Positions 26,650 through 54,336 of a stretch of DNA of 59,734 bases are shown here, piece after piece; positions within the stretch are counted from its first letter, which is position 1; each line of letters begins with the position of its first letter. A model generated the notes under the pieces. That model was not told the DNA's origin. It searched no databases and saw only the letters and a program-made list of their open reading frames with translations. Made by a program: the position numbers and the translations under genes. This DNA comes from Candidatus Xenobia bacterium. Its GTDB lineage: Bacteria; Vulcanimicrobiota; Xenobia; Xenobiales; QWHO01. The stretch is taken from positions 1-59,734 of the forward strand of contig BTUM01000048.1 of the NCBI GenBank assembly GCA_045863235.1, given 5' to 3'.

Positions 26650-26691
26650 GCCGGTCAGGGTCCTTTCAGACAATATGGCTAGACTCAGAGC
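26650..26691 (+). promoter_or_regulatory. Shared direct-repeat/-10 leaderless promoter (copy 1)
   Basis: GCCGGTCAG-N2-TCCTTTCAG-N10-TAGACT-N6-GTG. Confidence 0.7.
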
Positions 26692-28533
26692 GTGATCACC
26701 TCGATCGGCTCCGGCTGGCAGCTCGCCTGGAAACCCGGGCCCCTGGCCGCATCCGGCCCGGGGCCAGAAGCGGTGGATGTCTTCAGCCCTTCCGCGCCGG
26801 TCGCCTCAGAGCCTTCGGAGGCCGGCCCGGCCGTGCCGGCCAGCCTGATCGCATCCGGTAAGGAAGCGCTCAAGCGCTTCGACTTCATCTCCAGCGAGCG
26901 CATCGACCTCAACGCCTTCCCTCGTCCCCAGCGCACCATCGAGTTCCTCAACGGCGAGAGCGAGTACTCGATTCGAGACAAGAAGCTGAACCCGGTCAAC
27001 AACCCCCTGCAACTGGTCCGCCCCTACGCCCTGCACAGCTGCAGCTCGCTCTATTACGAGATCAACCCGGGCATGTCCGGGCCCAACATCTATCGAACCG
27101 AGCGTGGTTGGGGCGAGGACGGCCGGAAGGAAGAGGGTTACCTCAAGCTGGTCAAGGCCTTCGAGACCTTCTCGGTGAAGCTGCTCGAGAGCCTGAACGT
27201 GGAGGACGCCGAAACCCGTCGCGCGCAGGTCAAGACAGCGCTGGACGAGGAGTTCGGGGGCAAGAAGGTCAGCCAGTACCTCACTCCCGAGGACGCGCGC
27301 AAGATCTCCCCCGACCAGAGCCCGGAGAGCTGGCTGGTTTACGGGATGCTGAACGTCCTCTTGCACCCCTCCCCCGAAGTGTCGGCCCGGGCCCGGCTCC
27401 GCTCGCTCGAACTCCTCAGTCTGTTTACTCCGCAGGCCATGACGGATGGCTTTCGCAGCGAGAAACAGCGCTATCACAACGGCTACGACCGCATCAGCCC
27501 ACCCCGGCTGCCCGAGCGCATCGCCACCCGCGAGGAGCGGCTGGCCACCGACAAGGTGGAGTGGACGCGCAACCCGTTCATGCAAGACCTTCTGGTGCGC
27601 GACCAGAACCGCCGCCTGGACACCCGAGCGGTCACCTCGCGGCTCCTGGAGGAGTCGCCCGACCTGGCCGTCTCGGTGGGGCTGCTGATGCTGCACGGCG
27701 CTGATACCACCGAGGCCGGCCTGGCCCTGTTGCAGGCCATCCCCCGCCTGGACGAGCAGACCCTTGAGAAAGTGATGGGTCCCGAGGCCTCCTACCTCAC
27801 CGATCGCTTCGGCCCCGCGGGCGCGACGGGTCAGGTGGTGCAGGGGCTGGGGCTGGCCTCCTCGCGTCCCACGGCCACGGCGGCCGAGCTGCAACAGCAG
27901 CTGTTGCGCAAAGAGAGCTACGCCAACCACCTCAAGGAAGAGCTCTCCCGCACCCAGGTCCAGCTGGCCGCGGCCCAGACCTCTCTGCAGGAGTCCCAGG
28001 CCCGGGTGCAATCCCTGGAAAACTGGAGCGTCCGGGCCCAGAAGTTCATGCAGGAAAACGAGCAGCGCACGACCGCGCTGGTGGAGACCGTGCTGGAGCT
28101 GTCGGGCCAGCCAGCCAGGCAACGCCTGGAGGGCCTGGAAACCCTGCTCTCAGGCGGGAGACTGTCGGAGCTGGAGCTGCCCCTGGTGGTCAGGAGCCGC
28201 GATCAGGCGCTGGCTCAGGCGGCCCGGGAAGCGAGCGATCTGGGCGCTCTGGGCCAGGTCGCCGCCACAGCCAGCAACTGCCTGCAGCCCACCGCCCTGG
28301 AGCTGGTGGACCGGGCTCTGAGCATGGTGGTGGGTCCCCTGGGAGGCCCGCTCGGGAACCTGCGCGAGGAGGTGGCCTCAGGAGCCACCCCTCCCGGCGA
28401 AGCCCTGCGCACCCTGAAGGAGGTGGGGGAGGACTACGCCCGCCTCAGCGCCACCCGCGAGGGGATGGCGGGCGTCCGGGTGGGCGACGGTCACGTGCAG
28501 GTGGGAGCGGTTCGCGTTCAGCAGCGGCGCTGA
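26692..28533 (+). CDS. Hypothetical protein with coiled coil and shared C-terminal motif
   Basis: Pro/Ala/Ser-rich leader, coiled-coil segment, ends VRVGDGHVQVGAVRVQQRR. Confidence 0.85.
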   Translation: MITSIGSGWQLAWKPGPLAASGPGPEAVDVFSPSAPVASEPSEAGPAVPASLIASGKEALKRFDFISSERIDLNAFPRPQRTIEFLNGESEYSIRDKKLNPVNNPLQLVRPYALHSCSSLYYEINPGMSGPNIYRTERGWGEDGRKEEGYLKLVKAFETFSVKLLESLNVEDAETRRAQVKTALDEEFGGKKVSQYLTPEDARKISPDQSPESWLVYGMLNVLLHPSPEVSARARLRSLELLSLFTPQAMTDGFRSEKQRYHNGYDRISPPRLPERIATREERLATDKVEWTRNPFMQDLLVRDQNRRLDTRAVTSRLLEESPDLAVSVGLLMLHGADTTEAGLALLQAIPRLDEQTLEKVMGPEASYLTDRFGPAGATGQVVQGLGLASSRPTATAAELQQQLLRKESYANHLKEELSRTQVQLAAAQTSLQESQARVQSLENWSVRAQKFMQENEQRTTALVETVLELSGQPARQRLEGLETLLSGGRLSELELPLVVRSRDQALAQAAREASDLGALGQVAATASNCLQPTALELVDRALSMVVGPLGGPLGNLREEVASGATPPGEALRTLKEVGEDYARLSATREGMAGVRVGDGHVQVGAVRVQQRR

Positions 28534-28534
28534 A

Positions 28535-28576
28535 TCCTTTCAGGCCCCTTTCGGGGATCCGCGCTAAGCTGAGCGC
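28535..28576 (+). promoter_or_regulatory. Shared direct-repeat/-10 leaderless promoter (copy 2)
   Basis: TCCTTTCAG-N2-CCCTTTCGG-N10-TAAGCT-N6-ATG. Confidence 0.7.
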
Positions 28577-30802
28577 ATGCTGATCCAGCCCCCCCGATCC
28601 TACACGATGCGCGACGGAGCCCGCGGCGGGCTGTCCGTGCGCCATCTGATGGCCGAGGGTGAGGAGTACCGAGTAGCCCGGCGCAGCCATCCCTCCCAGA
28701 CCTGGGAGCTCACGACCGGGCCGATCTCGCGGGAGGGCGGCGAGCTGACCGGGGAGGAATGGCGCACCCTCAATCCGGGCGACCAGGTGCGCGAGCTGGC
28801 CATCGGCCAGGGGCGAGCTTACTACACCACGTTCAACCTGGTGCACTCGGTCGACCCGGCCACCGGCCAGAATCGCGGGATCGCTCTCTCCAGGAATCCC
28901 CCCAAGGACCTGGCGGTGGCCTCGAACGGCAGCCTGCTGGGACTGAGCGACAACAGGCTCGAGGTCTATGCGCCCGACATGCGCGAGCGCAAGACCATCA
29001 AACTGCCAGGCAATCCCTACGCCATGGCCCACCACGGCCCGGTGGGGCTGATCAGCCTGCGGGCCGCCGACAAGCTCCACCGGGTGGTAAGCGAGGACGG
29101 CACCCTGCGCGCCGAGCTCGAGGGCGAGCCGGTCACCCCGGGCCACGTGGGCAACGACGGGGCTCTGTGGCAGGTGCTGCCCGGCCAGGTGGCCCGCCTC
29201 AACGCCCAGGGAGAGCTGACCACCTTCCCGGTGCCTGAGAGCGCCTGCCTGGCCCTGGGCCAGGCCGACGGCTCCTTTACGCTGGTGCTCGAGGGCGAGT
29301 TGCAGCAGCGCTCGGCCAGCGGTGAGCTGCTCAGCTCGACCCCGCTCGAGCAGGCTCCCGCCCAGCTCTCGCTCGATCGGGAGGGCGGGCTGTGGCTGGC
29401 GGGCAAGGGACAGGTGAGCCGCTATCACCAGGGTCGGCTGACCAGCGTGGACAGCCCCGAGGGACCCTTCGCCCTGGGTGTGCTGGCCGACGGCCAGGCG
29501 CTCGTGGTGGAGCCCCACCAGACCCGCAAGCTCGGCCCCGCGGGCGAGCTGATCAAGAGCTATCCTGACCCCTGGTTGGCCCGCGAGACAGACGGGGGTG
29601 AGCTGCTCACGCCGGTGGCCCTGCGCACCGCCTACGGCCCCGAGGAGCAGGGCTGGACTCTCTTTCTCAATCAGGTGGCCCGGGGTCTGGGCCGGCCCGA
29701 GTCGCTGCCGACCCCCGGGGCGCTGCGCCCGCTGGGCGGCATCATGGAGCGTGTCCAGAGCCAGAGCATCTCACGCCAGGCCCTGCTCTCGCGTCAGGCG
29801 GTGGCCACCGCCCTGGAGGCCTCCGCCCCGGTGGCCTCGGTCGCGGTTGTGCTGCTGAGGGGCAAGCCCGAGCTGCTGGCCGTCTGGGAGGACGAGCAGT
29901 CGGTGCAGCTCTGCGCAAGCAACGGCTGGACCCGGGGGGCGGCCAGTCTGCAGGCTCCGCTGCAGGGATTGAGCCTGGACCACCTGGGGGCGGTGGGAGC
30001 CGACCAGCGGGGCAACCTGGTCATGCTGGACCTGGAGGAGGCCCTGCCCGGCCCGGCCCTCAGCGCCGCCGAGACTGCTCGGCTGGCCCTGGGCCTGGTC
30101 AAGGAGGCCGACCTGAAGGCGCTGGACGGCGTGCTGGCCCACCTCAAGACCTATCCCGAGCTCTCGTCGGCGGTGAGCTACCTGGAGACCACCTTGAGCG
30201 AGGCGGGCAACGCCAGGGGGGTGCGCATCGCCCTGGAAACGGTGCTCAAGGATCCTCAGGCCGGCTCGGGCGCCTGGACGGATGCGTTGCTGGGCGACCG
30301 GAGCGAGCTCTGGCACCGCGACCCGGGCATGGCGGGACGGATGCGCATCAACCAGCTCGAGCCCGAGCTGGGTGAGATGACCCGCCTGTCGGTGAGCGCT
30401 CTGCCCGTCAACCAGTGGATCTGGACGCTGCGCCGGCTGCCCGAGCAGGGGCCCGGCCCCAGCGAGTCGCCCCGCGAGCGTCCTCTGGACCTGGCCGCCT
30501 TCTTCTATGACCAGCTCGACCCGGCCAGGAAGGGCGAGTGGATCGGCTCGGTTGTAGAGAAGTGGCGCCAGGACGAGCGCTTTGCCTACCCGGGGGCGCA
30601 GGCGATCTTGAGCCGGCCAGATATGAAGGACTTCGTGCACGACCTGCTCGAGCCACTACGCCAGAACCTGCGCACCGAAGGCGAGGTGCGCTCGCTGGTC
30701 TCGGCACCGGCCCAGAGCGGGGTGGAGAACGTGGGCGACTACACCCGCGTGGGCGCGGTGCGGCTCAAGCGGCGGGTGGTGTTTCCAGGCGAGGAGAGCT
30801 AG
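28577..30802 (+). CDS. Beta-propeller-like hypothetical protein with shared C-terminal motif
   Basis: Blade-like repeats (LAVASNGSLL, GNDGALW, LSLDREGGLW), helical tail, ends VENVGDYTRVGAVRLKRRVVFPGEES. Confidence 0.85.
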   Translation: MLIQPPRSYTMRDGARGGLSVRHLMAEGEEYRVARRSHPSQTWELTTGPISREGGELTGEEWRTLNPGDQVRELAIGQGRAYYTTFNLVHSVDPATGQNRGIALSRNPPKDLAVASNGSLLGLSDNRLEVYAPDMRERKTIKLPGNPYAMAHHGPVGLISLRAADKLHRVVSEDGTLRAELEGEPVTPGHVGNDGALWQVLPGQVARLNAQGELTTFPVPESACLALGQADGSFTLVLEGELQQRSASGELLSSTPLEQAPAQLSLDREGGLWLAGKGQVSRYHQGRLTSVDSPEGPFALGVLADGQALVVEPHQTRKLGPAGELIKSYPDPWLARETDGGELLTPVALRTAYGPEEQGWTLFLNQVARGLGRPESLPTPGALRPLGGIMERVQSQSISRQALLSRQAVATALEASAPVASVAVVLLRGKPELLAVWEDEQSVQLCASNGWTRGAASLQAPLQGLSLDHLGAVGADQRGNLVMLDLEEALPGPALSAAETARLALGLVKEADLKALDGVLAHLKTYPELSSAVSYLETTLSEAGNARGVRIALETVLKDPQAGSGAWTDALLGDRSELWHRDPGMAGRMRINQLEPELGEMTRLSVSALPVNQWIWTLRRLPEQGPGPSESPRERPLDLAAFFYDQLDPARKGEWIGSVVEKWRQDERFAYPGAQAILSRPDMKDFVHDLLEPLRQNLRTEGEVRSLVSAPAQSGVENVGDYTRVGAVRLKRRVVFPGEES

Positions 30803-30870
30803 AAGTCCGGCCGCAAACCCCCATGGGAACCTCCGCCACCACAAGATGTTGTAGGCGGCCCGACTTCTAG
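30799..30870. mobile_element. REP/MITE-like element with CTAG at both ends
   Basis: CTAG-AAGTCCGGCCGC...GCGGCCCGACTT-CTAG (11/12 inverted repeat); related ends at 30924, 36311, 43168 and 48387. Confidence 0.65.
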
Positions 30871-30945
30871 CACAGTCGCGCAGCCGGAAAACGTGTCAAG
30901 GGGGTTTCCGCCTGCGCTCCGAGGAAGTCCGGCCGCAAACCCTCG

Positions 30946-31722
30946 TCAAAGGGGGTTCCGGCTGCGATGCAAAGAGTCCAAGGAGGGAACTGTAGTTTTG
31001 GAGTGGCCGGGCTCTGCTTGGACACCACGACCGGACTGCCAGGGGAGCTTGTCCAGCACCCAGTCGATGGCCTGATCGGCCCGGGCCCGGAAGCCCTCGT
31101 GGTTCATGTAAAGCATCTGGGTGGGTCCGAGGACGGCGTTGGCCACCAGGGCCGGTCCGATCAACACTCCCGAGCGCAGCAGTCCGCTCGACACGGCGCC
31201 TGCGGCGTCGAACAGAGTCTTCATCTTCTGGATGCGGCTATACTCTTCGGGGGTCTTGAGCACCAGGTAGGCCTTGCCGGCCGATGCCGCCAGGCTCAGT
31301 CCCAGCCCGACCAGGGGAGCGCCAGCGGCCATGGCGGCGCTGGAGGCGCCCGAGGTCAGGTCGGCCACGCCCATCAGGCGCAGGTAGCGGTCGTTGTTCT
31401 TGATGCCGTGGTAGAGCTCCAGGCCCCCTACCAGGCCGTCCGTGGCGGCCCGCAGCCCCAGCCCGCTCTTGTAAACCAGGCCAGCCACCCCATCGGGAGT
31501 CATGGCCCGGTCCACCAGCTCGCTGACTTCGCGTCCTGCTTCGCCGATATCGCCCCGGAAGGCGGAGCTGGCGATGAGGCGCAACGACTCGAGGTTCTCC
31601 ATGGGGTTGCTGACCAGCCCCAGCGTGATGCCGGCTGGCTCGACCAGCCCCACCAGAGTGGAGCGCTGCTTGATCTTGTCGGCCAGGCTGCGGCCCTCGG
31701 CGACTTGCGAGCTGATCTGCAC
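30946..31722 (-). CDS. Gly/Ala-rich membrane protein
   Basis: Several hydrophobic Gly/Ala helices; start inferred at GTG (VQISSQ). Confidence 0.7.
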   Translation of the reverse strand: MQISSQVAEGRSLADKIKQRSTLVGLVEPAGITLGLVSNPMENLESLRLIASSAFRGDIGEAGREVSELVDRAMTPDGVAGLVYKSGLGLRAATDGLVGGLELYHGIKNNDRYLRLMGVADLTSGASSAAMAAGAPLVGLGLSLAASAGKAYLVLKTPEEYSRIQKMKTLFDAAGAVSSGLLRSGVLIGPALVANAVLGPTQMLYMNHEGFRARADQAIDWVLDKLPWQSGRGVQAEPGHSKTTVPSLDSLHRSRNPL

Positions 31723-31980
31723 GAAGAACAGATAACCCGATGGAGCCTTCCGGCGCTGCTCTGGCCTGGTTAACTTTTTACGAACGTCAGGTGAGAGCCC
31801 TCTCGGAAACGGTCGCCGGGATGAGCTGCCCGTGAAGACGGGAATCCGAAAGCCCAGCATCAACCGTCTTACGCCGCTGAGAGAAGCCGCGTGGGAGAGC
31901 AAACGAGCCCACCTCCCGGATAATCATGAACCGCGCAAAACCGCCAGGGATTCGCCGCTCTGACCCGGAATGCCGCGCTC

Positions 31981-33174
31981 ATGGGCGATCTCGCCGACGG
32001 CGAATCGATCGAGGTCAAAGGCTCGGCGGCCACCCCCTACGTGCTGCGCAACGTGGGCGGGGTCTACTCGTGCAGCTGCCCGGCCTGGCGCAACCAGAAC
32101 CGTCCCCCCGAGAGCCGCACCTGCAAGCACCTCAAAGCCCTGCGCGGAGCGGCGGTGGAGGAGGAGCGCGTGGGCTCGCCCCCCTCCCCCACGCCGAGTG
32201 GCTCCTCCACGAGCAGTGCGAGCTCGAGCGAAGCCAAGGCCCCTCCCCTGCTGCTGGCCCACAGCTGGGACAACCAGGCCGACCTGAGCGGCTGGTGGAT
32301 GAGCGAGAAGCTGGACGGAGTGCGGGCCTATTGGGACGGCAAGCAGCTCTGGTCGCGCCTGGGCAACCCCTTCCTGGCTCCCGACTGGTTCCTGGAAGGG
32401 CTCCCCCCTATCCCGCTGGATGGCGAGCTGTGGGGTGGACGCCGACAGTTCCAGCGCACCGTCAGCATCGTGCGCCGGCAAGACCGCGGACCCCACTGGC
32501 GGGAGATCCGCTTCGTGGTCTTCGACGCACCCGGCGAGGCCAGCGGCTTCGAGGCCCGGCAACAGCTGCTGGCCGCCAACCTGCAGGGTTCCCCCGATCA
32601 CCTCGAGCTACATCCCCAGGAGCTGTGCCAGGGCCTGGAGCACCTCAAGAGCGAGCTCCGACGCGTCGAAGGGCTGGGGGGCGAGGGGTTGATGCTGCGC
32701 CAGCCCGGCTCGCGCTATGAGGTGGGGCGCTCGCATACCCTGCTCAAGGTGAAGAGCTTCTTCGACGGCGAGGCCCGGGTGGTGGGCCACCAGCCCGGGG
32801 CCGGGCGCCACGCCGGCCGACTGGGAGCGCTGCTGGTGGAGTTGGTGGACGGCAAGCGCTTCTCGGTCGGCACCGGCCTCTCGGACGCCGAGCGCCACAG
32901 CCCCCCTCCGGTGGGCAGCCTGATCACCTTCCGCTACCAAGAGCTCTCCAACGCCGGCATCCCGCGCTTTCCCTCCTATGTGGGCGTGCGCACCGACCTG
33001 GCCGAGCTCACCCCCCTGCAGGCCGTCTGCTGCTTCTGCCGGGCAGTGATGACAGTCGACTCGAAAAGCTCGGTCAGCATCCAGCTTACCCACGAGGGTA
33101 ACGAGCAGAGCTGGCAGGCGCATCCGGAGTGCTGGTTGAGCCAGCTGGGGCTCTCCCAGGAGCAAGCAACCTGA
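31981..33174 (+). CDS. ATP-dependent DNA ligase with N-terminal SWIM zinc finger
   Basis: SEKLDGVR (KxDGxR), LDGELW, FVVFD, EGLMLR, LLKVK, PRFP; N-terminal YSCSCPAW...CKHL. Confidence 0.93.
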   Translation: MGDLADGESIEVKGSAATPYVLRNVGGVYSCSCPAWRNQNRPPESRTCKHLKALRGAAVEEERVGSPPSPTPSGSSTSSASSSEAKAPPLLLAHSWDNQADLSGWWMSEKLDGVRAYWDGKQLWSRLGNPFLAPDWFLEGLPPIPLDGELWGGRRQFQRTVSIVRRQDRGPHWREIRFVVFDAPGEASGFEARQQLLAANLQGSPDHLELHPQELCQGLEHLKSELRRVEGLGGEGLMLRQPGSRYEVGRSHTLLKVKSFFDGEARVVGHQPGAGRHAGRLGALLVELVDGKRFSVGTGLSDAERHSPPPVGSLITFRYQELSNAGIPRFPSYVGVRTDLAELTPLQAVCCFCRAVMTVDSKSSVSIQLTHEGNEQSWQAHPECWLSQLGLSQEQAT

Positions 33175-33219
33175 GCAGGTATAGAGGGTCAGCCTCAGCC
33201 CCCTGCGAAGCGCCAAGTC

Positions 33220-36200
33220 GTGGCAAGCGAGTTCGAGCCGGGCCAGATGCTGGCCGGACGCTATCGGCTGACCGAGCCCCTGGGCGCGGGCCGCATCGGC
33301 ACCGTCTGGCTGGCCCATGACCGCAAGCTGGATCAGGACGTAGCGGTCAAGATCCCCCATCCCTGGCAGGGTCGCAACCCCGAGTTCATGGCCCGATTTC
33401 GTCGCGAGCTGCTGACGGGAATGCGGCTGCACCATCCGGCCGTAGTGCGCAGCCTGGATACCGGCCAGCACGAAGGTCTCCCCTACCTGGTGATGGAGCT
33501 GGTGCAGGGGGCTCCCATCCACCTCTGGTTCGAAGCCCACGCCCGGCGTGACTTCGAGGCCCTCTCCGAGGTACTCGAGGAGATCCTGGATGCGCTGAGC
33601 TACGCTCACGGACAGCGCCTGATCCACCAGGACCTCAAGCCCGACAACATCATGGTGGACGAGGGCGGCCAGGTGCACATCACCGACTTCGGCCTGGCCG
33701 GCCGTCTGGAGGATCAAACCCGCACCGACGACACCGGGGCCATGATGGCCGATCTCGCCTACCTCAGCCCCGAGCAGGCCATGGGCGAGCGCGGCGGGGT
33801 GCGCTCCGACCTTTACTCGCTGGGGGCGGTGCTCTACCACGTGCTGACCGGTCGCCCGCCGGTGGAGGCCCGCGACCCGGCCCAGTTCCTGCTGGCTATC
33901 CTCAACCAGAGTCCCCAGTCCCCCCATCGGCTGCGGGGGGACATCCCCGCCTGGCTGACCCGTCTGACCATGCGGCTGATGGCCCGCCAGCCGGAGGACC
34001 GGCCCGCCTCGGCCGCCGAGGTAGCCCGGCTGGTGCAGCGTCAGGGAAGCCGCCAGAGCGATCCCATGCCGGCCGGCAAGCGTCGTAACCTGCTCGGCCG
34101 CGATGAGGAACTGAGCCAGCTGCGCGGGTATCTGCAAGAGCTGAAGGGCGGGCGAGGCACCGTGGTGCGTGTCACCGGCACGGCCGGCTCGGGCAAGACC
34201 AGCCTGGTGGAGGAATTCCTGCGCCGGGCCCGACCGGTGGCCCACTGCAAGGTTCAGTCCAGCGCCATGCAACCGCTTCATTGCGGATTGCTGGAAAGGG
34301 CGCTGGGGGGACAGGGTACCCTGGCCGAGCGCCTGCGGCAGCGGCTGGCCCAGGGTCCGCTCATCCTGGTGGTGGAGTGGGCGCACGAGGCGACCCCCGA
34401 GCTGGTGGAGCGACTGCGCGCCCTGCTGGCCGACCAGCCCCCCGTGCTCTTGATCTTGATCGACCGGCCCGGCAAGGCCCGCTTCGAGGGCACCACCCAG
34501 TGGCTCAACGAGGCCCGGCACCGCCTGGTGGTGCGAGGCCTGACGCGCGATTTCTGCGCCCGCTACGTGGAAGAGCACCTGTGGGCGGCTCCCCCCGACG
34601 CGGCGGTCTCCTGGTTGATGCGAATGACCCACGGCAACCCGCTCCACCTGGGCCTGCTGCTGCGTCAGCTGGAGGGCACGGCGCTGCAGCTCTCGGGCGT
34701 TGTAGCCACCTGGGAGGAGCCGCGGGATGTGCCTCGCACCCTGACCGACCTTCTCAACTGGGTGCTCGAGCGCCAGGGTCCCGACGCCAGCGCCATCATG
34801 TCCATGGCCGCCAGCCTGGAGGAGCGCTTCGAACTGGGCCTGCTGCAATCGGTGGTAACCTACGAGGAGCGGGTGCTGGAGGACACGCTGGATGGCCTGG
34901 TGCGTGCCGGCCTGCTGGACGAGCAGTGGGAGGGGGGGGTGCAGCAGTTTCTCTTCGCCCACGAGCCCATCTGGCGGGTAGCCCTGCACCGCATTCCCGA
35001 GCGGCGCCAGCGCCGACTCTGCCTGCTGGCCGGCAACCTCACCGCCGGGGTCGATCCCGAGCGGGCGGCTCGCTTCTTCGCGCGGGCTCTCAATGCTCCC
35101 CGGGCAGTGGAGCAGCTGCTGCTGGCGGCCGAACGCGATTTCGAGACCGGTTTACCCGAGTGCGCTGCCTTTCTGAGCGGCCAGGCCGAGCGCCTGGCCT
35201 CAGAGGACGGCCATCTTGCCGAAGAGCTGGTACGGGCGGTGCTGCTGAAAGCCAGGGCTCTAGCGGCAGGGGGCCATAACCAGGCCGCCCGCGAGGCTGC
35301 CCACCGCACTCTCAAGCTCAGCCCCAGCGCTGAGCAGGCCGACCAGGCGCGCACGCTCTTGCGCCGCACGCCTATCGAGCCGGGCAAGAAGCCGGCCGCC
35401 GTTGCCCCGGCCGCGAAGGCACGCTCCAGCCCGGCCCCTCCCGAACTGGCGCCCGAGCTGGCCCTCAGTCCGGCCGCCAAGCGCGCCGTGCTGGGAGCGC
35501 GCAAGAAGGGGGTGGCTCCGCCCGCTCCCCGGGTCGAGCCCGCCCGCGCGGGAAAGACCCCCGCTCCGGCTCTCACGCCACCCACTTCGGTTCCCAGGCG
35601 AACCGAGAAGCCCGTGGCTCCACAGCCGGCGGCCGCCCCGACCGCCGGAAGGACGCCCCAGCCCGTCAAGACGCCTACCAGGCCAGCAGCTGCACCGCGG
35701 GGAGGCACCTCCACCAGTGGTCCAGCTCGCACGGTTTCTCCCGCGGCCCGGGCCAGCTCAGAAGCTCAGGCAGTCGTGCCCGGCAGCTCCGCCCCGGTGG
35801 CTCCCCGGCCAGTCAAACTGCCCAGCCCTGTCCTGACGGCCCGGGTGCAGCCCCAGCTTCCCCCGGTCGTGCACCCCGCCCAGCGCGCCGAGCCAGATGA
35901 GCCGCTGGCTCCAGGGCGGCTCTCCGGTCCGATGGCAGCCGGGGTCCAGGCTCCCCAGCTGGTGCCACCGGCCCCAGCGACCGCTCCGCCTCCCAGCGCA
36001 CTTGCTGAGCCGCCGCGTCCCGAGCCTCCCCCGCCTTCGCCCGAGCGGGCCCAGCCCCAGGTCACCCAGGTGGCCCAGGAGCCTCCCGCTCCCCCGCCGG
36101 AGCAGATCCCTGAGTTCGTGGAGCCCCCCGAAATGGCCGCCCGCCGCCGTTACGAGACGGCCCGCGCGGCTGGAGACCGGGCCTCGGCCGCCCGCGCCGC

Positions 36201-36294
36201 CGAGGAGCTGGCCCGTCACTTCGAGGCCGCCCACGACCGCCAGAAGGCCTCTCTCTGGCGCCACCAGGCTCGCTTGCTCAGCAGCGCGCCCTGA
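33220..36294 (+). CDS. Ser/Thr kinase fused to a P-loop ATPase, helical region and Pro-rich tail
   Basis: VAVK, HQDLKPDN, DFG, YLSPE, SDLYSLG; Walker A GTAGSGKT; GNPL motif. Confidence 0.9.
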   Translation: MASEFEPGQMLAGRYRLTEPLGAGRIGTVWLAHDRKLDQDVAVKIPHPWQGRNPEFMARFRRELLTGMRLHHPAVVRSLDTGQHEGLPYLVMELVQGAPIHLWFEAHARRDFEALSEVLEEILDALSYAHGQRLIHQDLKPDNIMVDEGGQVHITDFGLAGRLEDQTRTDDTGAMMADLAYLSPEQAMGERGGVRSDLYSLGAVLYHVLTGRPPVEARDPAQFLLAILNQSPQSPHRLRGDIPAWLTRLTMRLMARQPEDRPASAAEVARLVQRQGSRQSDPMPAGKRRNLLGRDEELSQLRGYLQELKGGRGTVVRVTGTAGSGKTSLVEEFLRRARPVAHCKVQSSAMQPLHCGLLERALGGQGTLAERLRQRLAQGPLILVVEWAHEATPELVERLRALLADQPPVLLILIDRPGKARFEGTTQWLNEARHRLVVRGLTRDFCARYVEEHLWAAPPDAAVSWLMRMTHGNPLHLGLLLRQLEGTALQLSGVVATWEEPRDVPRTLTDLLNWVLERQGPDASAIMSMAASLEERFELGLLQSVVTYEERVLEDTLDGLVRAGLLDEQWEGGVQQFLFAHEPIWRVALHRIPERRQRRLCLLAGNLTAGVDPERAARFFARALNAPRAVEQLLLAAERDFETGLPECAAFLSGQAERLASEDGHLAEELVRAVLLKARALAAGGHNQAAREAAHRTLKLSPSAEQADQARTLLRRTPIEPGKKPAAVAPAAKARSSPAPPELAPELALSPAAKRAVLGARKKGVAPPAPRVEPARAGKTPAPALTPPTSVPRRTEKPVAPQPAAAPTAGRTPQPVKTPTRPAAAPRGGTSTSGPARTVSPAARASSEAQAVVPGSSAPVAPRPVKLPSPVLTARVQPQLPPVVHPAQRAEPDEPLAPGRLSGPMAAGVQAPQLVPPAPATAPPPSALAEPPRPEPPPPSPERAQPQVTQVAQEPPAPPPEQIPEFVEPPEMAARRRYETARAAGDRASAARAAEELARHFEAAHDRQKASLWRHQARLLSSAP

Positions 36295-36310
36295 CGGAAG
36301 TTGCCTCCGA

Positions 36311-36328
36311 GGGTTTGCGGCCGGACTT
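36311..36328 (-). repeat. REP/MITE family half-copy
   Basis: AAGTCCGGCCGCAAACCC on the minus strand, between convergent genes. Confidence 0.7.
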
Positions 36329-36362
36329 GTAAGCACTTCCACCGAGGATCGCTGCGCAGAAG

Positions 36363-37634
36363 TTACGAGCCCGACTTCTGCGCCTCGCTTGAGCGCAATC
36401 GCTCGCGCACCAGGTCCTGGAGGGGACCGTCCACCAGCTCGGCCAGGTCCTTGCCCGGGCAGGTGGTCTGGCCGGGCGCCTCGTCGCGATGGCCGCGGAT
36501 GGTGCCCGGGTCGAGGTTGTGGCGCAGGCAGAGGTAGACCAGGATCTGGATCAGGGCCTCGCGCTGCTCGGGGCTGACCTTCTCGGTCTCGAAGTCGCCG
36601 TCGAGCTCGACGTTGATCACGCCGTTCAGGTCGTACTTCGTGTTGCTCTCGGGGCGGTAGCGCACGTCGCGGCCCTCGAAGATGCGGCCGTCGAAAGCGA
36701 TCATGTAGTGGTAAGGCAGATCCGGCCAGGCCTTGTCCTTCTGGCCCCACAGCTGCATGGCCCGCACCTTCTCGGCCATGTCCACGTCGTGCTTGGTGGG
36801 CACTCCGGCGTGGTGCACGACCAGCCGATTGGGGACGTGCTCGAGCTCGGGTCCAAGCGGTTGGGGGACCGATCCCCACTCCTCGCGGCGCACCACCATG
36901 AGCGGCAGGGCATAGGTGTCGCAACGCTTGTGCCAGCCGGAGCGCCAGCGCTCCTCGCCCCGCCCGGGAGGGGAGTTGGCGATGCGGCGATCCAGGCAGC
37001 GTCTGGCCGCCTGCGAGAACTCATAGGCGGCTCTCGGGCCGGCGGGCACGTCCTTCATCTCCAGCAAGACCCAGAGAAGGCCCCAGCCGTGGCCCTGGTA
37101 GCGCTCGGCGGGGGCGATCCCCTCGCCCTTGAAGTTGACGTAGTCAATCAGGGCGTAGACGCCGTTGGGGGTAGCCAGCAGCTTGTCGAGATTGCGCTTC
37201 ACTCGCTCCGGGTCGGGGGCGGCCTCGACCAGCCGGGGCAAGCTCGCCTGCATCCGGGCCACCAGGAACTCGGTCTGCAGATCCACCGTGGCCGCCAGCC
37301 AGGTGCGAAGCTCCACCATCTGCTCGCTCTCCTGGGCCTGCTCGAACGCTTGCTTCGAGTCCCAGGGGCAGGCTGACTCGAGGGCCACACTGGGGGGCGT
37401 GGCCCCCCTCTCGCGGGCAAAGCGCACGAAGCTGGGGAAGCTCTCCACGAAAGGGCCCCTCAACCCCCGGGGATACCAGATGAAGTGGCCGATGCCCAGC
37501 GAGGGGAACTCCTCGCCCTCGTTCCAGCTCGTGAGACCGGCTACCGTGCCATGGCACTCGTTCTGCCAGACCTTGCGGCCGATCCAGCTCTGCTCGAAGG
37601 TGGTGAGGGTCAACAGGATGAGAAGGGCGATCAT
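36363..37634 (-). CDS. Secreted two-domain protein: unknown N-domain plus PGRP-type N-acetylmuramoyl-L-alanine amidase
   Basis: VVRREEWG, LVVHHAG, WPDLPYHYMI..DGRIFEGR, RGHRD...TCPG; short hydrophobic signal at ATG 37634. Confidence 0.85.
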   Translation of the reverse strand: MIALLILLTLTTFEQSWIGRKVWQNECHGTVAGLTSWNEGEEFPSLGIGHFIWYPRGLRGPFVESFPSFVRFARERGATPPSVALESACPWDSKQAFEQAQESEQMVELRTWLAATVDLQTEFLVARMQASLPRLVEAAPDPERVKRNLDKLLATPNGVYALIDYVNFKGEGIAPAERYQGHGWGLLWVLLEMKDVPAGPRAAYEFSQAARRCLDRRIANSPPGRGEERWRSGWHKRCDTYALPLMVVRREEWGSVPQPLGPELEHVPNRLVVHHAGVPTKHDVDMAEKVRAMQLWGQKDKAWPDLPYHYMIAFDGRIFEGRDVRYRPESNTKYDLNGVINVELDGDFETEKVSPEQREALIQILVYLCLRHNLDPGTIRGHRDEAPGQTTCPGKDLAELVDGPLQDLVRERLRSSEAQKSGS

Positions 37635-37704
37635 GGGGCGGTCGAGTTCGTTCTTAACAAGCGGTTCACCCGCTGGCAACCGGCGACCGGGTAGACTGGG
37701 TCCG

Positions 37705-39189
37705 ATGCTGATACGAGAGGCGCAGTCCGTTCTTTCCGCCCCGGCGCGCCCGCCCCGGGCCAGGGGCTCGGCCGATCCCACCGACCGGGTGGAGATCAGC
37801 GGCCAGACCGTGCCCGTGGCCCACCAGCGCGAGCTGCGCGGGGCCTGGGTGGCCAGCGTCTGGAACATCAACTTCCCAAGCGCCGCGGGCCTGCCGGCCG
37901 AGCAGCAGAAGTTCGAGCTGACGGCCATGCTCGATCGGCTCAAGGATTGCGGCTTCAACGCAGTCTTCTTCCAGGTGCGCCCCGAGGGAGACGCGCTCTA
38001 TCGCTCGGAGAACGAGCCCTGGAGCGCCTGGCTGACGGGAGAGCAGGGGCGGCCTCCGGGCTACGATCCCCTGGAATTCCTCATCCAGGAGGCCCATGCG
38101 CGCAACATCGAAGTGCACGCCTGGCTCAATCCCTACCGGGCCCAGTCGGGTCCGCAGGAGCGGGTAGCCCCGCACATCGCGGTGGAGGAGCCCGAGCAGG
38201 TCCATCCCTACGGTGCCCTCAAGTGGATGGACCCGGGCACCGAGATCGTGCGCGAGCGACTGGTGGACGTGGCCCAGGACCTGACCCGGCGCTACGACGT
38301 GGACGGGATCCACTTCGACGACTACTTCTACCCCTATCCCCTGAGCGGCGTGGACTTCCCGGACGAGAAGACCTACAGCGACTACCAGCTCTTCGGAGGC
38401 ACCCTGTCGCGGGCCGACTGGCGGCGCGAGAACGTCAACCAGGCCGTGCGCGAGACCGCCGAAGGGGTGAGGGCGACAAAAGATCACGTGCGCTTCGGCA
38501 TCTCGCCCTTCGGCCTTCCCGCCCCCGAGCGCCCCGAAGGGGTGAGTGGCTTCGACCAGTATGAGGGTCTCTACGCCGATACCCAGAAGTGGATGGACCG
38601 GGGCTGGGTGGACTACCTCGCTCCCCAGCTCTACTGGCCCACCAGCTCGACGCGGCAGCCCTACGAGACGTTGCTGAACTGGTGGACCGACCACGCCCGC
38701 GAGGGGCACTATGTCTTTGCGGGCAACGACCTCACCTCGCTGGGCAAGAATGAGCGCTGGACGGTGGATGAGTTCCGCCAGCAGGTGGAGATCTGCCGCT
38801 CGCGGGCCGAGCAGGGCTCGCAGGGCAACATCTGGTACAACGTGGGGCCGTTGATGGAGAACCGTCAGGGGATCGCGGACGTCTTCCAGGACGAGCTCTA
38901 CGCCCGGCCCGCCCTGACGCCGCCCCTGGCGGGGGCGGCCGGCCGCCCGGTGGCCGCTCCCAAGGTAGGGGTCGAAGGCGGAGTTCTGCAGCTCGAGCAC
39001 CGCGACGATGCGCCGCTGCGGGCCTGGACGGTGTACCGCCGCGAGGGCGAGGGATGGGAGCTCGACCGCGTTCTGCCCGGGGACAAGACCATTCTGGAGC
39101 TGCCCGCCGGGGAGTGGGCCATCGCGGCCGCCACCAAGCACGGCAACGAGAGCCAGGGGGTGGTGGTCACCACAGGCGGCTCTCGATAG
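37705..39189 (+). CDS. GHL10 (YddW/DigH-like) glycoside hydrolase
   Basis: ELRGAWVASV.NI.FPS, FFQVRPEGDALY, EVHAWLNPYR, YDVDGIHFDDYFYPY, FGISPFG, DYLAPQLYW; TAGACT 7 nt before ATG. Confidence 0.92.
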   Translation: MLIREAQSVLSAPARPPRARGSADPTDRVEISGQTVPVAHQRELRGAWVASVWNINFPSAAGLPAEQQKFELTAMLDRLKDCGFNAVFFQVRPEGDALYRSENEPWSAWLTGEQGRPPGYDPLEFLIQEAHARNIEVHAWLNPYRAQSGPQERVAPHIAVEEPEQVHPYGALKWMDPGTEIVRERLVDVAQDLTRRYDVDGIHFDDYFYPYPLSGVDFPDEKTYSDYQLFGGTLSRADWRRENVNQAVRETAEGVRATKDHVRFGISPFGLPAPERPEGVSGFDQYEGLYADTQKWMDRGWVDYLAPQLYWPTSSTRQPYETLLNWWTDHAREGHYVFAGNDLTSLGKNERWTVDEFRQQVEICRSRAEQGSQGNIWYNVGPLMENRQGIADVFQDELYARPALTPPLAGAAGRPVAAPKVGVEGGVLQLEHRDDAPLRAWTVYRREGEGWELDRVLPGDKTILELPAGEWAIAAATKHGNESQGVVVTTGGSR

Positions 39190-39354
39190 AGGCTTCGACC
39201 ATCGTGATCATCTCGCGAGGTGACGGGAACGATGGTCGGTCAGAGTCGGGGAAACCCTGCTCCGAATGGTGGGCGCAGGGCACTCAACCCGCCGGCGCAA
39301 TCGAGCGAGTGCTCGTGGGCAGTTGCTCCGTGGAACCACTATCCCCAAGCCTGG

Positions 39355-40029
39355 TTAGATGTCTGTCGAGGGAGCCTCAGGCTCGGCCTTCTTCTTTCTC
39401 AGGACCACGCCGCCGATCTGAACCTGCTGGCCGTCCTCGCGCACATCCGACTCGGGCAGAGCCTGGCGTGTCTCGGCCGCGACCTGCCGGTCCTTATGGT
39501 AGGCCTGGAGCTCGGACTGGTGCAGGCTGACTTTGGCCCTCAGGCCGCTGGCCAGGGACTTCACCTGGACCGCGGCCAGGGCGCTCCCGCCCCACAGTGC
39601 CGCCCCCGCCAGGGGGCGAACCCACTCGGGGGCTGCCGTCAGGGCTACGCCGATCAGCTTCATGGGCAAAAAGACGCCGGCCAGAGAGCCAGCCGCGGCG
39701 GCGGCGCAGGCCAGCGCGATGGTCGCCTTCATACCCAGGCCCTTTTTGTGATGGGCCATCAGCGCCAGGGCCGTCCCGACCACGACTCCGGTCAGGCCGC
39801 CCACCATGGCCGGAGCAAAAGAGATCAAGCTGGGAACCAGGAGGCCTACGGCGGCCCCAGCCGCGGTGGCACCCACCAGGGTCAGGGCGCTCTTGCGCCG
39901 GAAACTGGCCACCTCGGGCGGCTCTGCGGGAGGGGCCGGCTCGAGCAGGTCCTGGGGCACCTCGGGACGGACCGCGGCTGCCGAGCGAACGGACACTGTT
40001 GAGCCGGGGATGGTTTGCTGGACGATCAT
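39355..40029 (-). CDS. Multi-TM hypothetical protein with shared C-terminal motif
   Basis: Low-complexity leader, about four Gly/Ala-rich hydrophobic helices, ends VREDGQQVQIGGVVLRKKKAEPEAPSTDI. Confidence 0.8.
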   Translation of the reverse strand: MIVQQTIPGSTVSVRSAAAVRPEVPQDLLEPAPPAEPPEVASFRRKSALTLVGATAAGAAVGLLVPSLISFAPAMVGGLTGVVVGTALALMAHHKKGLGMKATIALACAAAAAGSLAGVFLPMKLIGVALTAAPEWVRPLAGAALWGGSALAAVQVKSLASGLRAKVSLHQSELQAYHKDRQVAAETRQALPESDVREDGQQVQIGGVVLRKKKAEPEAPSTDI

Positions 40030-40062
40030 ACCTTGCCAGGGTAGCCGCAGAGGCTTAAAGAA
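40030..40062 (-). promoter_or_regulatory. Shared promoter (copy 3)
   Basis: TTCTTTAAG-N10-TACCCT-N8-ATG on the minus strand; upstream partner box weak. Confidence 0.6.
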
Positions 40063-40096
40063 TCCTACCCGAGCGGTCACTCCCGGCATCGGTGCG

Positions 40097-40318
40097 CCAC
40101 CGACCTCGAGCGGTGGGTCTCCGGCGCCACCAACCTCAAGCTGGCATTCTCGGGTGGGGCACACACCGGTCTCCGCCACCAACCTCGAGCTGGCATTCTC
40201 GGGTGGGCACGCGTCTCCGCCACCAACCTCGAGCTGGCATTCTCGGGTGGGGCACGCACCCGGTCTCCGCCACCAACCTCGAGTTGGCTACTCTCGGGTG
40301 CGGGCACACACCGGTCTC
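40097..40318. repeat. Tandem array, 4 units of 44-50 bp plus a partial unit
   Basis: CCACCAACCTCGAGCTGGCATTCTCGGGTGGGGCAC..GTCTCCG at 40127, 40176, 40220 and 40270. Confidence 0.9.
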
Positions 40319-40443
40319 TTGCGCCAGCAGGGCGGGTCCATACCCCGGGCGCTCCTCCACCCGGGCGCCAGGCGCGGAGGATGAGAACGCGGGCGAGGGG
40401 TCATTGATCGCGTGTGATGACCCGGCAGATGGCGGTGTCAAGC

Positions 40444-41688
40444 TCAGGGAGGGAAGCTGCCGCGCACCAGTCCTTTGTCGCCTGCCACCAGGTAGTCGCC
40501 CTGGTTGTTCAGACCCACGCCCATGCCGCTTTCTGAGTAGCCCACATCGAGCCGCTCGCCCGAGGGAGTGGTCAGGTACTCCCAGCGAGCCTGGCCGTCG
40601 GCGATCTGGCCCCGGATGACCCCTTTGTCCCCGGCCACGACGAACTGGCCACGCTCGTTCACAGAGACGCCCAGGCCGCTCTCGGAGTAGCCCAGGTCGA
40701 GGCGCTCGGTGCCTTCCTGCAAGAACTGGTAACCCTGGCCCAGGCGACCAAAGATGACTCCCTTGTCGCCCGCCACCATGAACTGGCCGGAGTTGTTCAG
40801 GGCCGCGCCAAGACCGCTCTCGGAGTAGCCCAGGTCGAGCCGCTCGCGTCCTTCCTGGAGGTATTGGAAGGTGGGATTGCCCTCGTTCAGGTCGCCGTGC
40901 ACGATGCCCCGATCGCCCGCCACCAGGAACTGCCCGTGGTCGTTCAGGGCCGCGCCCAGGCCGCTCTCGGAGTAGCCCAGGTCGAGACGCTCTCCGCCCT
41001 GCATCAGGTAGCGGAAACTGGCACTGCCGTCCTCGCCGAGCTGTCCGTGCACGATGCCCCTGTCACCCGCCACCAGGAACTGCCCGTTCTCGTTCAGGGC
41101 GGCTCCCAGGCCGCTCTCGGAATAGCCCAGGTCGAGGGCCTGGCTGCCTTCCATGAGGTAGCTGGCCACCGGTCCGTCGGGAGTCAGACGGCCCACCAGG
41201 ATGCCCCTGTCGCCGGCGATCACGAACTGGCCCTTCTCATTCAGGGCGGCCCCCAGGCCACTCTCGGAGTAGCCCAGGTCCACCAGATTGCCGGCGGCAT
41301 CGCGCAAGAGCTCGCCGTTGATCAGGATGCCCCTGTCGCCGGCCGCGATGAAGTCGCCCCGGTCGTTGAGGGCGGCGGCCAGGCCGCTCTCCGAGTAACC
41401 CAGGTCCACAACCTGGTTGTTCTGGCACACGAGCACCTGGCACTCCGCGGGAGGCGTGGCAGGGGTCGAGGGACCGCAGCCGGCCAGGCCGAGCACGCCC
41501 ACCAGGGAGAGGGCGGCGAACAGGCCCGTCTGCCAGCGGCCGAACTGACGCGGCGCCTCTTGTGAGGTGCGGGGCTGCGAGAGAATAACGGACTCGGTGG
41601 GAGCCTCGTCGGGGGACACCAGCGAGCGCGCGCCGGGTGGTGGGCGGTGGGCCAGGCCGGAGGCCGCCAGAGGGCGGATGGTCAGCAT
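40444..41688 (-). CDS. Putative lipoprotein with 7 near-identical repeats (symmetric beta-propeller)
   Basis: Seven copies of (L/V)D(L/V)GYSESG.....N..G.(F/Y)..AGD(R/K)G; hydrophobic stretch ending LGLAGC after a ~50-aa leader. Confidence 0.85.
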   Translation of the reverse strand: MLTIRPLAASGLAHRPPPGARSLVSPDEAPTESVILSQPRTSQEAPRQFGRWQTGLFAALSLVGVLGLAGCGPSTPATPPAECQVLVCQNNQVVDLGYSESGLAAALNDRGDFIAAGDRGILINGELLRDAAGNLVDLGYSESGLGAALNEKGQFVIAGDRGILVGRLTPDGPVASYLMEGSQALDLGYSESGLGAALNENGQFLVAGDRGIVHGQLGEDGSASFRYLMQGGERLDLGYSESGLGAALNDHGQFLVAGDRGIVHGDLNEGNPTFQYLQEGRERLDLGYSESGLGAALNNSGQFMVAGDKGVIFGRLGQGYQFLQEGTERLDLGYSESGLGVSVNERGQFVVAGDKGVIRGQIADGQARWEYLTTPSGERLDVGYSESGMGVGLNNQGDYLVAGDKGLVRGSFPP

Positions 41689-41730
41689 GGCTCCAGAGTG
41701 CCGCAGCGACCTGAAAGGAGGCTGAACGGC
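41689..41730 (-). promoter_or_regulatory. Shared promoter (copy 4)
   Basis: GCCGTTCAG-N2-TCCTTTCAG-N10-CACTCT-N6-ATG on the minus strand. Confidence 0.7.
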
Positions 41731-41753
41731 GGGGGCGGGGAAAGCTGGCCGGC

Positions 41754-42443
41754 ATGTACAGCCGCTCTGCCCGTTTCTACGACGCGATCTACGGTTTCAA
41801 AGATTACGAGGCCGAGTGCCGGCGGCTTGTCGAGCTCGTCGGTCCGGGTGGGAGCTTGCTGGACGTGGCCTGCGGGACAGGGCTGCACGCGCGCCAACTG
41901 ACCAGGAGCTTCCAGGTCACCGGTGTCGATCTCGATTCCGAGTTGCTCGAGGTGGCCCGGGCAAACGTGCCCCAGGCACAGTTTCTCCAGGCCGACATGC
42001 GCTCGTTTGACCTGGGACGCACCTTTCGGGTGGTCACCTGTCTGTTCAGCTCCATCGCCTACGTGAAGACCGAGCAGGCTCTGCACTCGGCCTGCGCGTG
42101 TCTGGCTCGTCACCTGGAGCCAGGCGGCAAGCTCTTGGTCGAGCCCTGGTTGCGGCGCGAGATGCTCAAGCCTGGCCATGTCGGCCTGGACACGGCCGAG
42201 TGCGATGGGGTTCGACTGGCCCGCATGAGCACGTTGGAGATCGTGGGCGAGCTGTCGGTGATCCACTTCCACTACCTGATCGGGTCAGCCGAGGGGATCG
42301 TCCACGAGACCGAGGACCACGAGCTGGCGTTGTTCACGCTGGAGCAGTACCGACAGGCGCTGGAGCAGGCCGGCCTGCAGGTGGAGTTCGAGCCGGAAGG
42401 TCTTTGTGGTCGCGGGCTCTTCACAGGGGTGCGCGTGGATTGA
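41754..42443 (+). CDS. Class I SAM-dependent methyltransferase (TylM1/DesVI-like)
   Basis: A.FYDAIY..KDY..E, LLDVACGTG.H, ADMRSFDLG, TCLFSSIAY, HLEPGG.LLVEPW. Confidence 0.9.
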   Translation: MYSRSARFYDAIYGFKDYEAECRRLVELVGPGGSLLDVACGTGLHARQLTRSFQVTGVDLDSELLEVARANVPQAQFLQADMRSFDLGRTFRVVTCLFSSIAYVKTEQALHSACACLARHLEPGGKLLVEPWLRREMLKPGHVGLDTAECDGVRLARMSTLEIVGELSVIHFHYLIGSAEGIVHETEDHELALFTLEQYRQALEQAGLQVEFEPEGLCGRGLFTGVRVD

Positions 42444-42484
42444 CCTTCAGCTTGCTTTAAGCCCCGCGACGTATCCTCGAGCCG
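42442..42484 (+). promoter_or_regulatory. Shared promoter (copy 5)
   Basis: GACCTTCAG-N2-TGCTTTAAG-N10-TATCCT-N7-ATG. Confidence 0.7.
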
Positions 42485-54261: not shown

Positions 54262-54336
54262 CGTGCGCGTCCTCCTGGATTCAGAGAATAGGGCGGAGGA
54301 CTGAAAAAACTCTGATGACCTGGTCCGGAGCAACGC

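Follow-up and report, generated by a model that had tools for sequence, protein, structure and literature searches.

A putative tandem-repeat promoter element before about 360 dispersed genes of a Candidatus Xenobia bacterium, and its candidate activators

The direct repeats originally seen before a few genes of a Candidatus Xenobia bacterium are a real repeated signal, which we confirmed and which extends far past the stretch of DNA where it was noticed. The element consists of two direct repeats with an 11-bp pitch, 10 nt, and then a -10 hexamer, so that the repeats stand in place of the -35 region; the genome-wide element analysis gave no third repeat. It is almost certainly the promoter of about 360 dispersed genes, judging from its sequence and position. 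The best explanation of the whole, which we hold to be probable, is a regulon of type III-exported cargo under a winged-helix activator of the SARP type. No description of this box was found in the literature searched.

The element in the window and in the genome

The window is the whole stretch analysed, 59,734 nt of contig BTUM01000048.1 (assembly GCA_045863235.1). The five promoter sites of the original prediction were all found in the sequence as quoted; four of them have the second box 11 bp upstream, which is degenerate before 40029, as had been stated. Four of the five C-terminally tagged genes of the window carry the box; the gene starting at 22731, for which none had been found, indeed has none (cross-validated score -7.5). 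An unanchored scan of the window at a score of at least 11 returned exactly the five quoted sites and one more (Table 1). This sixth site had been overlooked.

Table 1. Promoter elements and associated genes in the window
Feature	Position	Strand	Details
428-aa tagged gene without box	21445..22731	-	tag 21460-21528; upstream weakly sigma-H-promoter-like
promoter element	26650..26685	+	upstream repeat 26650-26658, downstream repeat 26661-26669, 10-nt spacer, -10 hexamer 26680-26685; start codon 26692, gap 6 nt after -10; score 28.0
613-aa gene, predicted leaderless	26692..28533	+	Ser/Pro/Ala-rich N-terminus; C-terminal tag 28459-28530; no family in Pfam
promoter element	28535..28570	+	repeats 28535-28543, 28546-28554; -10 hexamer 28565-28570; start 28577, gap 6 nt; score 28.5
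741-aa gene, predicted leaderless	28577..30802	+	tag 30707-30784
224-aa gene	39355..40029	-	tag 39385-39459
promoter element	40038..40073	-	weak upstream repeat 40065-40073, downstream repeat 40054-40062, -10 hexamer 40038-40043; start 40029, gap 8 nt; score 22.7
414-aa gene, internally repetitive	40444..41688	-	boxed, without tag; N-terminus of the same Ser/Pro/Ala-rich kind
promoter element	41695..41730	-	repeats 41722-41730, 41711-41719; -10 hexamer 41695-41700; start 41688, gap 6 nt; score 30.1
promoter element	42442..42477	+	repeats 42442-42450, 42453-42461; -10 hexamer 42472-42477; start 42485, gap 7 nt; score 27.6
173-aa gene	42485..43006	+	tag 42932-43003
98-aa gene without tag, behind sixth site	53965..54261	-	boxed by 54285-54320
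sixth promoter element, leadered class	54285..54320	-	start codon 23 nt past -10; score 28.9

Little could be learned from the window proteins by homology. Six of them were compared with Pfam and gave no family, searches of the Atlas with the tag and with the 613-aa protein returned nothing usable, and the single-sequence fold of the 173-aa tagged protein was unusable (mean pLDDT 34.6). The 741-aa gene has one paralogue, on contig C47, which is likewise boxed and tagged. For the 613-aa gene, the coding score and the Atlas put the start 47 codons further downstream.

In the 8.36 Mb genome 355 sites reach a score of at least 18, compared to 6 in the reversed genome; at a score of at least 20 the figures are 331 and 1. 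All but two of the 355 strong sites (353) are not deep within a called gene, and 343 have a same-strand start at most 130 nt away. The evidence on spacing comes from matrix tests. Pitch 11 with spacer 10 gives 356 matches; changing the spacer by 1-2 nt leaves 34-44, and changing the pitch by 1 leaves 84 and 100. These counts are biased toward the first geometry because the matrix had been trained on it. When each block was scored on its own, the spacer maximum lies at 10 (360 vs 156 expected; 97-216 for the other spacers of 4-20 nt) and the pitch maximum at 11 (357 vs 126 expected; 261 at pitch 12).

Target genes and the export machine

The expected enrichment before C-terminally tagged genes was observed: the box precedes 118/201 tagged and 124/6879 untagged genes (odds ratio 77, p about 4e-131; 5-fold cross-validation by contig, the five window sites being seeded in each fold). 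The box would link the tagged genes into a regulon, as had been proposed, but this regulon is broader than the tag, 229 of the 361 boxed genes being untagged. The tag marks a subset, about 37% of the regulon, and would act as a second sorting or docking signal. Tagged genes without box number 57 of 201, and in family f2 no box was found at 7 of the 8 tagged ORFs read. A second, sigma-H-like promoter class for the 57 unboxed genes was rejected, the pattern being only weakly enriched before them (8/57 vs 344/6757, p 0.008; 0/57 at a stricter cut-off). The idea that the transcripts are leaderless stands for most boxed genes and fails for about a third, which have predicted leaders. Leaders of 18-70 nt with a purine-rich ribosome site were found at 90 strong sites. 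At the leadered sites, which had been left out of training, purines are enriched 6-8 nt past the -10, as expected for a start site.

The boxed proteins, tagged or untagged, have in common a Ser/Pro/Ala-rich N-terminus like that of type III substrates, and Sec signals are nearly absent: hydrophobic Sec-like N-termini occur in 9/241 leaderless targets and 6/100 leadered ones, vs 1572/7091 genes. A model of this N-terminus, trained on untagged boxed proteins only, gives a score of at least 3 to 64/119 proteins that are both boxed and tagged and to 43/98 leadered ones, vs 324/6521 others. FlgJ, a known flagellar export substrate, scores 5.1; only one of the nine scored axial or ruler proteins of known type reaches 3. 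A minority of boxed genes encode Sec signals or membrane-transport folds. The boxed genes of families f3 and f4 encode the same N-termini; among their products are hydrolases, phosphatases and lipid enzymes preceded by an N-terminal extension.

The core export apparatus is complete in the genome, and the one flagellar-type export cluster is located on contig C27 (FlhA, FlhB, FliPQR, FliI, FliF, FlgBC). Flagellin was not found in this genome. Within the class FlhA is present in 36 of 37 genomes and flagellin in 9, each with 2-3 FlhA copies. A non-flagellar type III (injectisome) core was rejected: the FlhA model is above cut-off and SctV below, and FlgB, FlgC and FliE are present. The cluster ends with 81-aa helical repeat genes, for which neither Pfam nor NCBIfam has a match. 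Whether the secretion-apparatus operons carry the box had also been raised as a check. They do not, the best score being 8.1, before flgB. These operons carry a different, separate repeat motif, and their control by this motif suggests a two-tier programme, machine first and cargo second.

From these sequence features, export of the cargo by the type III machine appears probable, and we lean slightly towards its use against prey or host cells. The absence of the box from the apparatus operons and the ordinary enzyme domains of many targets would also fit a stress or developmental programme, in which the promoter is real and the proteins are cytoplasmic with disordered N-termini. We regard such a programme as unlikely, since the positional N-terminal pattern is common to leaderless and leadered targets that nearly all lack Sec signals, a boxed small helical gene stands at the end of the export cluster, and this cluster is kept class-wide without flagellin. 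Searches for T6SS (11 queries) and T4SS (6 queries) gave no match save generic Clp and VirB11-like ATPases; this negative, obtained with single distant queries, is weak because one of two control queries also missed.

Candidate readers of the box

The geometry is, as originally claimed, that of OmpR-type winged-helix activators. A tandem dimer of such an activator, most likely a SARP, would bind the two repeats and recruit sigma-70-type holoenzyme, co-inducing the boxed genes. That a tandem winged-helix activator displaces sigma region 4 is very probable; for a SARP rather than a response regulator the balance tips only a little. A SARP-type activator is our first choice, with an OmpR response regulator second, because the register and core of the box match the Streptomyces afs box. 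Positions -38 to -34 hold the upstream core, and positions -27 and -26 the near-invariant thymines, a register that rests on an assumed start 7 nt past the -10. According to the available part of PMC10936776, the afsS promoter of S. coelicolor has two 11-bp repeats at -40 to -19, where AfsR reads T-38 and T-27. As here, the direct repeats overlap the -35 in the same register, the first five letters of the afsS hexamer (-38 to -33) are those of our upstream core, and the two critical thymines of AfsR are also present in the box (PMC10936776, in part). PhoB/PhoP/PmrA-type response regulators use this register as well.

SARPs (winged helix plus BTAD) are encoded in the genome, with 20 BTAD matches at E<=1e-8, and the profile of its BTAD proteins matches AfsR across the SARP domain (E 7e-31). 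The leads are C31:52020-54737, behind a boxed promoter, and SARPs on C101, C76 and C19. One SARP clade (24 rows, support 100/100) has a conserved recognition helix and was found in 15 of 37 class genomes, all of them among the 19 box-rich ones; none of the 18 box-poor genomes gave it. When three box-rich f3 genomes were retested and every candidate was scored, the clade was found in none of them (best match 33% identity). Its C31 member starts 14 nt after a boxed gene, and all 3 genus genomes retain that box (21.8, 21.6, 18.7). The clade has Asn and Gln at the base-reading Thr88 and Arg92 of AfsR, and most SARP paralogues here are without that pair. Unlike in AfsR, the SARP domain is mostly C-terminal, after receiver, HD, TPR, FHA or ATPase domains.

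Three Xenobia families are rich in the box, with counts of 69-107 in f1, 10-104 in f3 and 11 in f4, compared to 0-7 in f2. BTAD counts (16-24, 8-30, 9 and 0-2, respectively) run in step with these, which counts for a SARP reader; against it, both quantities grow with genome size and the genomes are kin. The box-poor genome G080 has 8 BTAD matches. No single regulator followed the box cleanly across genomes, and several SARP paralogues, rather than one activator, could share it. Spread was patchy for the SARPs C79, C115 and C101 and for the response regulator C28. C79 (at least 9 of 37 genomes), the FHA-SARP C115 (at least 7 of 37) and C28 (3 of 20) were dropped as readers on this ground. None of 13 canonical OmpR genes has a full box at its own start, as autoregulation would give. 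In families f14 and f18 of the other large class, sites precede exported proteins or lipoproteins, and the 20 loci read contained no OmpR gene. In AT-rich genomes box matches are no more numerous than in their controls.

The same regulon might instead be read by a PmrA/PhoP-like response regulator, C4:32828-33514, activated by the adjacent membrane kinase. Its recognition helix is PmrA-like and retains the Asn, Val, Glu and Ser with which M. tuberculosis PhoP contacts DNA, it has close relatives across the class, and in the genus its operon is flanked by in-phase arrays of related half-sites, one of them ending 10 nt before a -10. The activation of about 40 dispersed effector genes by Legionella PmrA, described in the available part of PMC6989116, also counts for it. 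We nevertheless consider this regulator an unlikely reader: the half-sites near it are one flanking base off the regulon consensus, and its spread is wider than that of the box, since it also occurs in G080 and f2, in which boxes are few or were not found. In G032, moreover, box-like sites stand before signal-less proteins, yet the helix occurs in 0 of 4 recovered response-regulator domains. It is improbable that the hyper-conserved response regulator C4:205130-205825 reads both repeat motifs as a single master regulator. It is 72-100% identical across 13 further genomes and its recognition helix does not change, as expected for a regulator with many targets, and the box and the second motif have related half-sites at the same pitch; its closest solved relatives, however, are MtrA and WalR/VicR, whose sites we take to resemble the second motif. 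The export clusters of G080, G066, G056, G002 and G032 keep the second motif and not the box, and only 8 of 361 genes are common to the two.

A reading by an alternative sigma factor alone, sigma-28-like or other, is very improbable. Late flagellar substrates are normally under sigma-28, and the genome has 20 sigma-70 region-2 matches, FliA-like and SigH-like among them. Against this, the repeats sit 10 and 21 nt from the -10, neither at 16-18 nt, and a tandem repeat is unlike what one sigma region 4 reads; the box does not have the sigma-28 -35/-10 pair about 15 nt apart, and the canonical-looking sigma-28 site before flgB is distinct from it. A phosphate-starvation (Pho) box would account for the repeats in box register that precede 5 of the 17 pstS-family genes from other classes within the phylum, and for the nucleases and phosphodiesterases noticed by eye among the targets. 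This reading is largely refuted. As neither pstB nor PhoU was found in this genome (97.6% complete), the regulon is not a phosphate one; the PstS family is present in 0 of 12 class genomes, and the regulators linked to pst differ in their helix and are only about 50% identical to the nearest regulator of this genome.

Relation to known systems and significance

A winged-helix regulator co-ordinating scattered effector genes, as proposed here, is known from Legionella pneumophila, where PmrA and CpxR do so and the box likewise serves for cargo discovery (PMC6989116, in part). Those two regulons comprise about 40 and 30 genes of a pathogen with a type IVB system, whereas here about 360 genes, a predicted flagellar-type type III route and mostly leaderless messages are concerned. 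Activation by tandem dimers of the PhoB/PhoP type, as far as covered by the available parts of PMC4832192 and PMC11825685, uses a half-site that differs from ours. Lysobacter enzymogenes OH11 also has flagellar export genes without flagellin, and there they export lytic proteins; three substrates have been shown, compared to hundreds predicted here (PMC7688988, in part). The cluster here, unlike that of Lysobacter, recurs in 36 of 37 genomes of the class, 9 of which have a second, flagellin-associated copy as well. Other flagellar exaptations exist (PMC3459982, in part).

Taken jointly, these results allow a broader reading, which we put forward tentatively: a flagellar basal body would have become a filament-less injection or export machine in Xenobia, independent of the known injectisomes and under two-tier control, a conserved regulator building the machine and SARP-type activators firing at least 350 cargo proteins from one box, while a new C-terminal tag would sort about 200 of them. 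If true, this would be among the largest effector regulons described, readable straight from DNA. SARP-type activators are known so far from antibiotic clusters, where they act on few biosynthetic promoters, as opposed to about 360 dispersed genes for predicted secreted cargo; if a SARP reads the box, the family would have a role far from its known one. In practical terms, a single promoter matrix yields about 360 candidates for secreted proteins in each genome, and most of these belong to no known family. It also corrects the start codons of boxed genes, where gene callers miss the N-terminal signal. The findings point to a class-wide, flagellin-less export machine, and the box gives a sequence-based handle on how this uncultured class of bacteria lives.

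Box geometry and its overlap with the tag

The box, i.e. two direct repeats at an 11-bp pitch followed by a 10-nt spacer and a -10 hexamer 5' of the start codon, was analyzed over the whole genome (8.36 Mb, 97.6% complete), of which the window is contig C48. The five sites of the original prediction are all present where it placed them in the window, four of them with the predicted second repeat 11 bp upstream, and a matrix scan of the window added only a sixth one. Using an unanchored matrix genome-wide, we identified 355 sites with a score of at least 18, vs 6 in the reversed genome; 353 of these strong sites are not deep within genes, and 343 have a same-strand start at most 130 nt away. 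The geometry is strict (pitch 11, spacer 10) in genome-wide matrix tests. Leaderless transcripts, as first proposed, are predicted by the geometry of 234 strong sites, located 5-10 nt before a start, but not of 90 others, which have leaders of 18-70 nt. Leadered sites, which were outside the training set, have a ribosome site rich in purines and show purines 6-8 nt past the -10. Boxed genes occur on about 100 contigs and are mildly clustered: 155 out of 339 have a boxed neighbour within 5 kb vs 104 at random.

The tag, a C-terminal protein motif, was searched in our own gene calls (7091 genes) with a profile seeded on five window tails and a cut-off score of 14. It is a real signal: 201 genes reach the cut-off vs 0 of 5522 mid-protein windows. 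Seven further proteins contain it internally; five of these are flagged as boxed, and in the other two a site precedes a start by 10 nt. The proposed enrichment of the box among tagged genes was clearly observed: with a start-anchored matrix and five-fold cross-validation by contig, the window sites being seeded in every fold, a score of at least 14 was obtained for 118/201 tagged vs 124/6879 untagged genes (odds ratio 77). Among the tagged genes, a leaderless box precedes 119 and a more distant upstream box 14; 10 follow a boxed gene, 57 lack the box, and 1 is located at the end of a contig. Boxed genes total 361 (132 tagged, 229 untagged). SigH-like factors are encoded in the genome, and a sigma-H-like pattern is weakly enriched among unboxed tagged genes.

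Features of the window and of other contigs (contig label given) of the same genome
Position	Strand	Feature	Score
22731-22775	-	Upstream region of the unboxed tagged gene; resembles a sigma-H promoter	
before 23538		Second motif	17.1
30820-30945		Short intergenic segment; in read data, its contig depth is high and it is joined to 43193, which suggests a dispersed repeat element	
before 37789		Second motif	14.7
40090-40310		Imperfect tandem array with several copies of a ~45-50 nt unit, between two boxed genes	
40444-41688	-	Boxed untagged protein, largely about eight near-identical 40-residue repeats; no Pfam match	
54285-54320		Sixth box site	
C4:205130-205825		Response regulator, likely candidate reader of the second motif	
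C27:55986-57051 (L004)		81-aa helical genes in three identical copies, located at the export cluster end; last one boxed, first one with the second motif	
C80:28012; C3:26973; C1:377631; C106:14866; C107:13658		Five proteins with the cytoplasmic part of FlhA alone	

Conservation and cargo

The strict box pattern has 92 matches in this genome (control 0), and 69 and 107 in its genus. Among other families of the class, it was found 10-104 times in all 14 genomes of f3 (controls 0-3), 11 times in each of two f4 genomes, 0-7 times in f2 (controls up to 3) and not at all in the single f5 genome; in the other large class (f14 and f18), 8 of 91 genomes contain 1-2 matches. Tag matches in a profile search number at least 134-149 in each genus genome, 11 and 29 in f4, 3-4 in 3/17 f2 genomes and 1 in 1/14 f3 genomes. 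By eye, 4 of the 23 boxed ORFs of genome G056 end in an acidic tag variant scoring below the cut-off. No box was present at the examined starts of 7/8 tagged ORFs in f2. Tag and box are therefore separable traits, yet strongly overlapping in f1, the family of this genus. The tag is also present in G032 (L315), a genome from another class of the phylum.

A hydrophobic Sec-like start is rare among boxed proteins (9/241 and 6/100) vs all genes (1572/7091). Their N-terminus consists of Met, a polar or aliphatic residue, Ile or Val, then a Ser/Pro/Ala-rich stretch. A model trained solely on untagged boxed proteins recognises 64/119 tagged and 43/98 leadered proteins vs 324/6521 others; since tagged and leadered proteins are also recognised, leaderless translation does not account for the pattern. 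FlgJ scores with this model and eight other axial or ruler proteins fail. The pattern would be a type III signal. Boxed genes of one f3 and two f4 genomes have N-termini mostly of the same kind, and their cargo includes deaminase, acyltransferase, deformylase, phospholipase D, tyrosine phosphatase and glycosyltransferase.

Candidate readers of the box

As originally suggested, the layout is OmpR-type, i.e. that of tandem winged helices overlapping the -35; such helices displace sigma region 4 (PMC4832192, PMC11825685). In both register and sequence, the box is closest to the afs box (PMC10936776). About 20 SARP domains are encoded in the genome, and their number climbs with that of boxes across families, as it also does with genome size. 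In a tree of the retrieved SARPs only, one clade with a conserved helix was found in 15/37 genomes, every one box-rich; in 3/3 genus genomes, one of its members is located downstream of a boxed promoter. The clade, predicted in four f3 genomes where it had been missed, was not found in the three retested; one of these, like G032, contains a paralogue whose helix is of the same Asn/Gln type. The SARP of contig C19 has 63% identity to f3 orthologues, its DNA-binding part being near-identical, and its helix is changed in box-poor G080. The main rival reading, in which the response regulator C4:32828 reads the box, is weakened, since this regulator also occurs in genomes with few boxes and is absent from G032. 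We infer the regulator, as we do the export route of the cargo.

Pho-box and sigma-28 readings of the box fail. Neither pstB nor PhoU was found in the genome, and the PstS family has no match in 12/12 Xenobia genomes (this one and 11 others) vs a presence in 11/12 genomes of other classes. At L243, L246, L236, L237 and L241, in other classes, pstS-family promoters contain 11-bp-pitch repeats in the same register, probably the Pho box of that lineage.

Second motif and export apparatus

A check of secretion-apparatus operons for the box had been proposed; the best score before flgB is 8.1. A de novo repeat search identified a second 11-bp-pitch motif, without fixed -10, at 249 genes vs 15 in reversed controls, and only 8/361 boxed genes have both. 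It precedes flgB, a rod/hook-like operon, a FliK-like gene, small helical subunits and a group-2 sigma, and five other genomes retain it at their export cluster. Its likely reader (table), whose nearest relatives are MtrA and WalR, has 72-100% identity in 13 other genomes with an unchanged recognition helix.

The genome contains one full FlhA, clustered with FlgB, FlgC, FliE, FliF, FliG, FliH, FliI, FliJ, FliK, FliM, FliN, FliO, FliP, FliQ, FliR and FlhB; no flagellin was found in it, nor T6SS or T4SS in single-query checks, which are weak. Over the class, FlhA was found in 36/37 genomes and flagellin in 9, each with a second or third FlhA. Flagellin-less flagellar systems as a secretion route have precedents (PMC7688988, PMC3459982). 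Two of the five stand-alone FlhA cytoplasmic parts are fused to a FliG N-terminal domain; all five proteins are possible substrate-sorting adaptors. The 81-aa helical proteins, which have further paralogues, may be a filament or needle subunit. Six genomes (G046, G084, G080, G074, G064, G092) have an extra FlhA/SctV-like gene whose score does not reach the FlhA cut-off; it may represent a third type III system.

In the accessible lineage literature, including passages of PMC9259500, PMC11484240 and PMC9758169, no description of the box, tag or regulon was found; the supplements of PMC9259500 hold secretion-system scans of related genomes, which may be relevant to the export cluster. Precedents for effector regulons controlled by a winged-helix regulator are those of Legionella PmrA and CpxR (PMC6989116). 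The box is a real, conserved promoter, its activator-type mechanism being well supported, and the regulon that it defines comprises about 360 proteins that are likely secreted.
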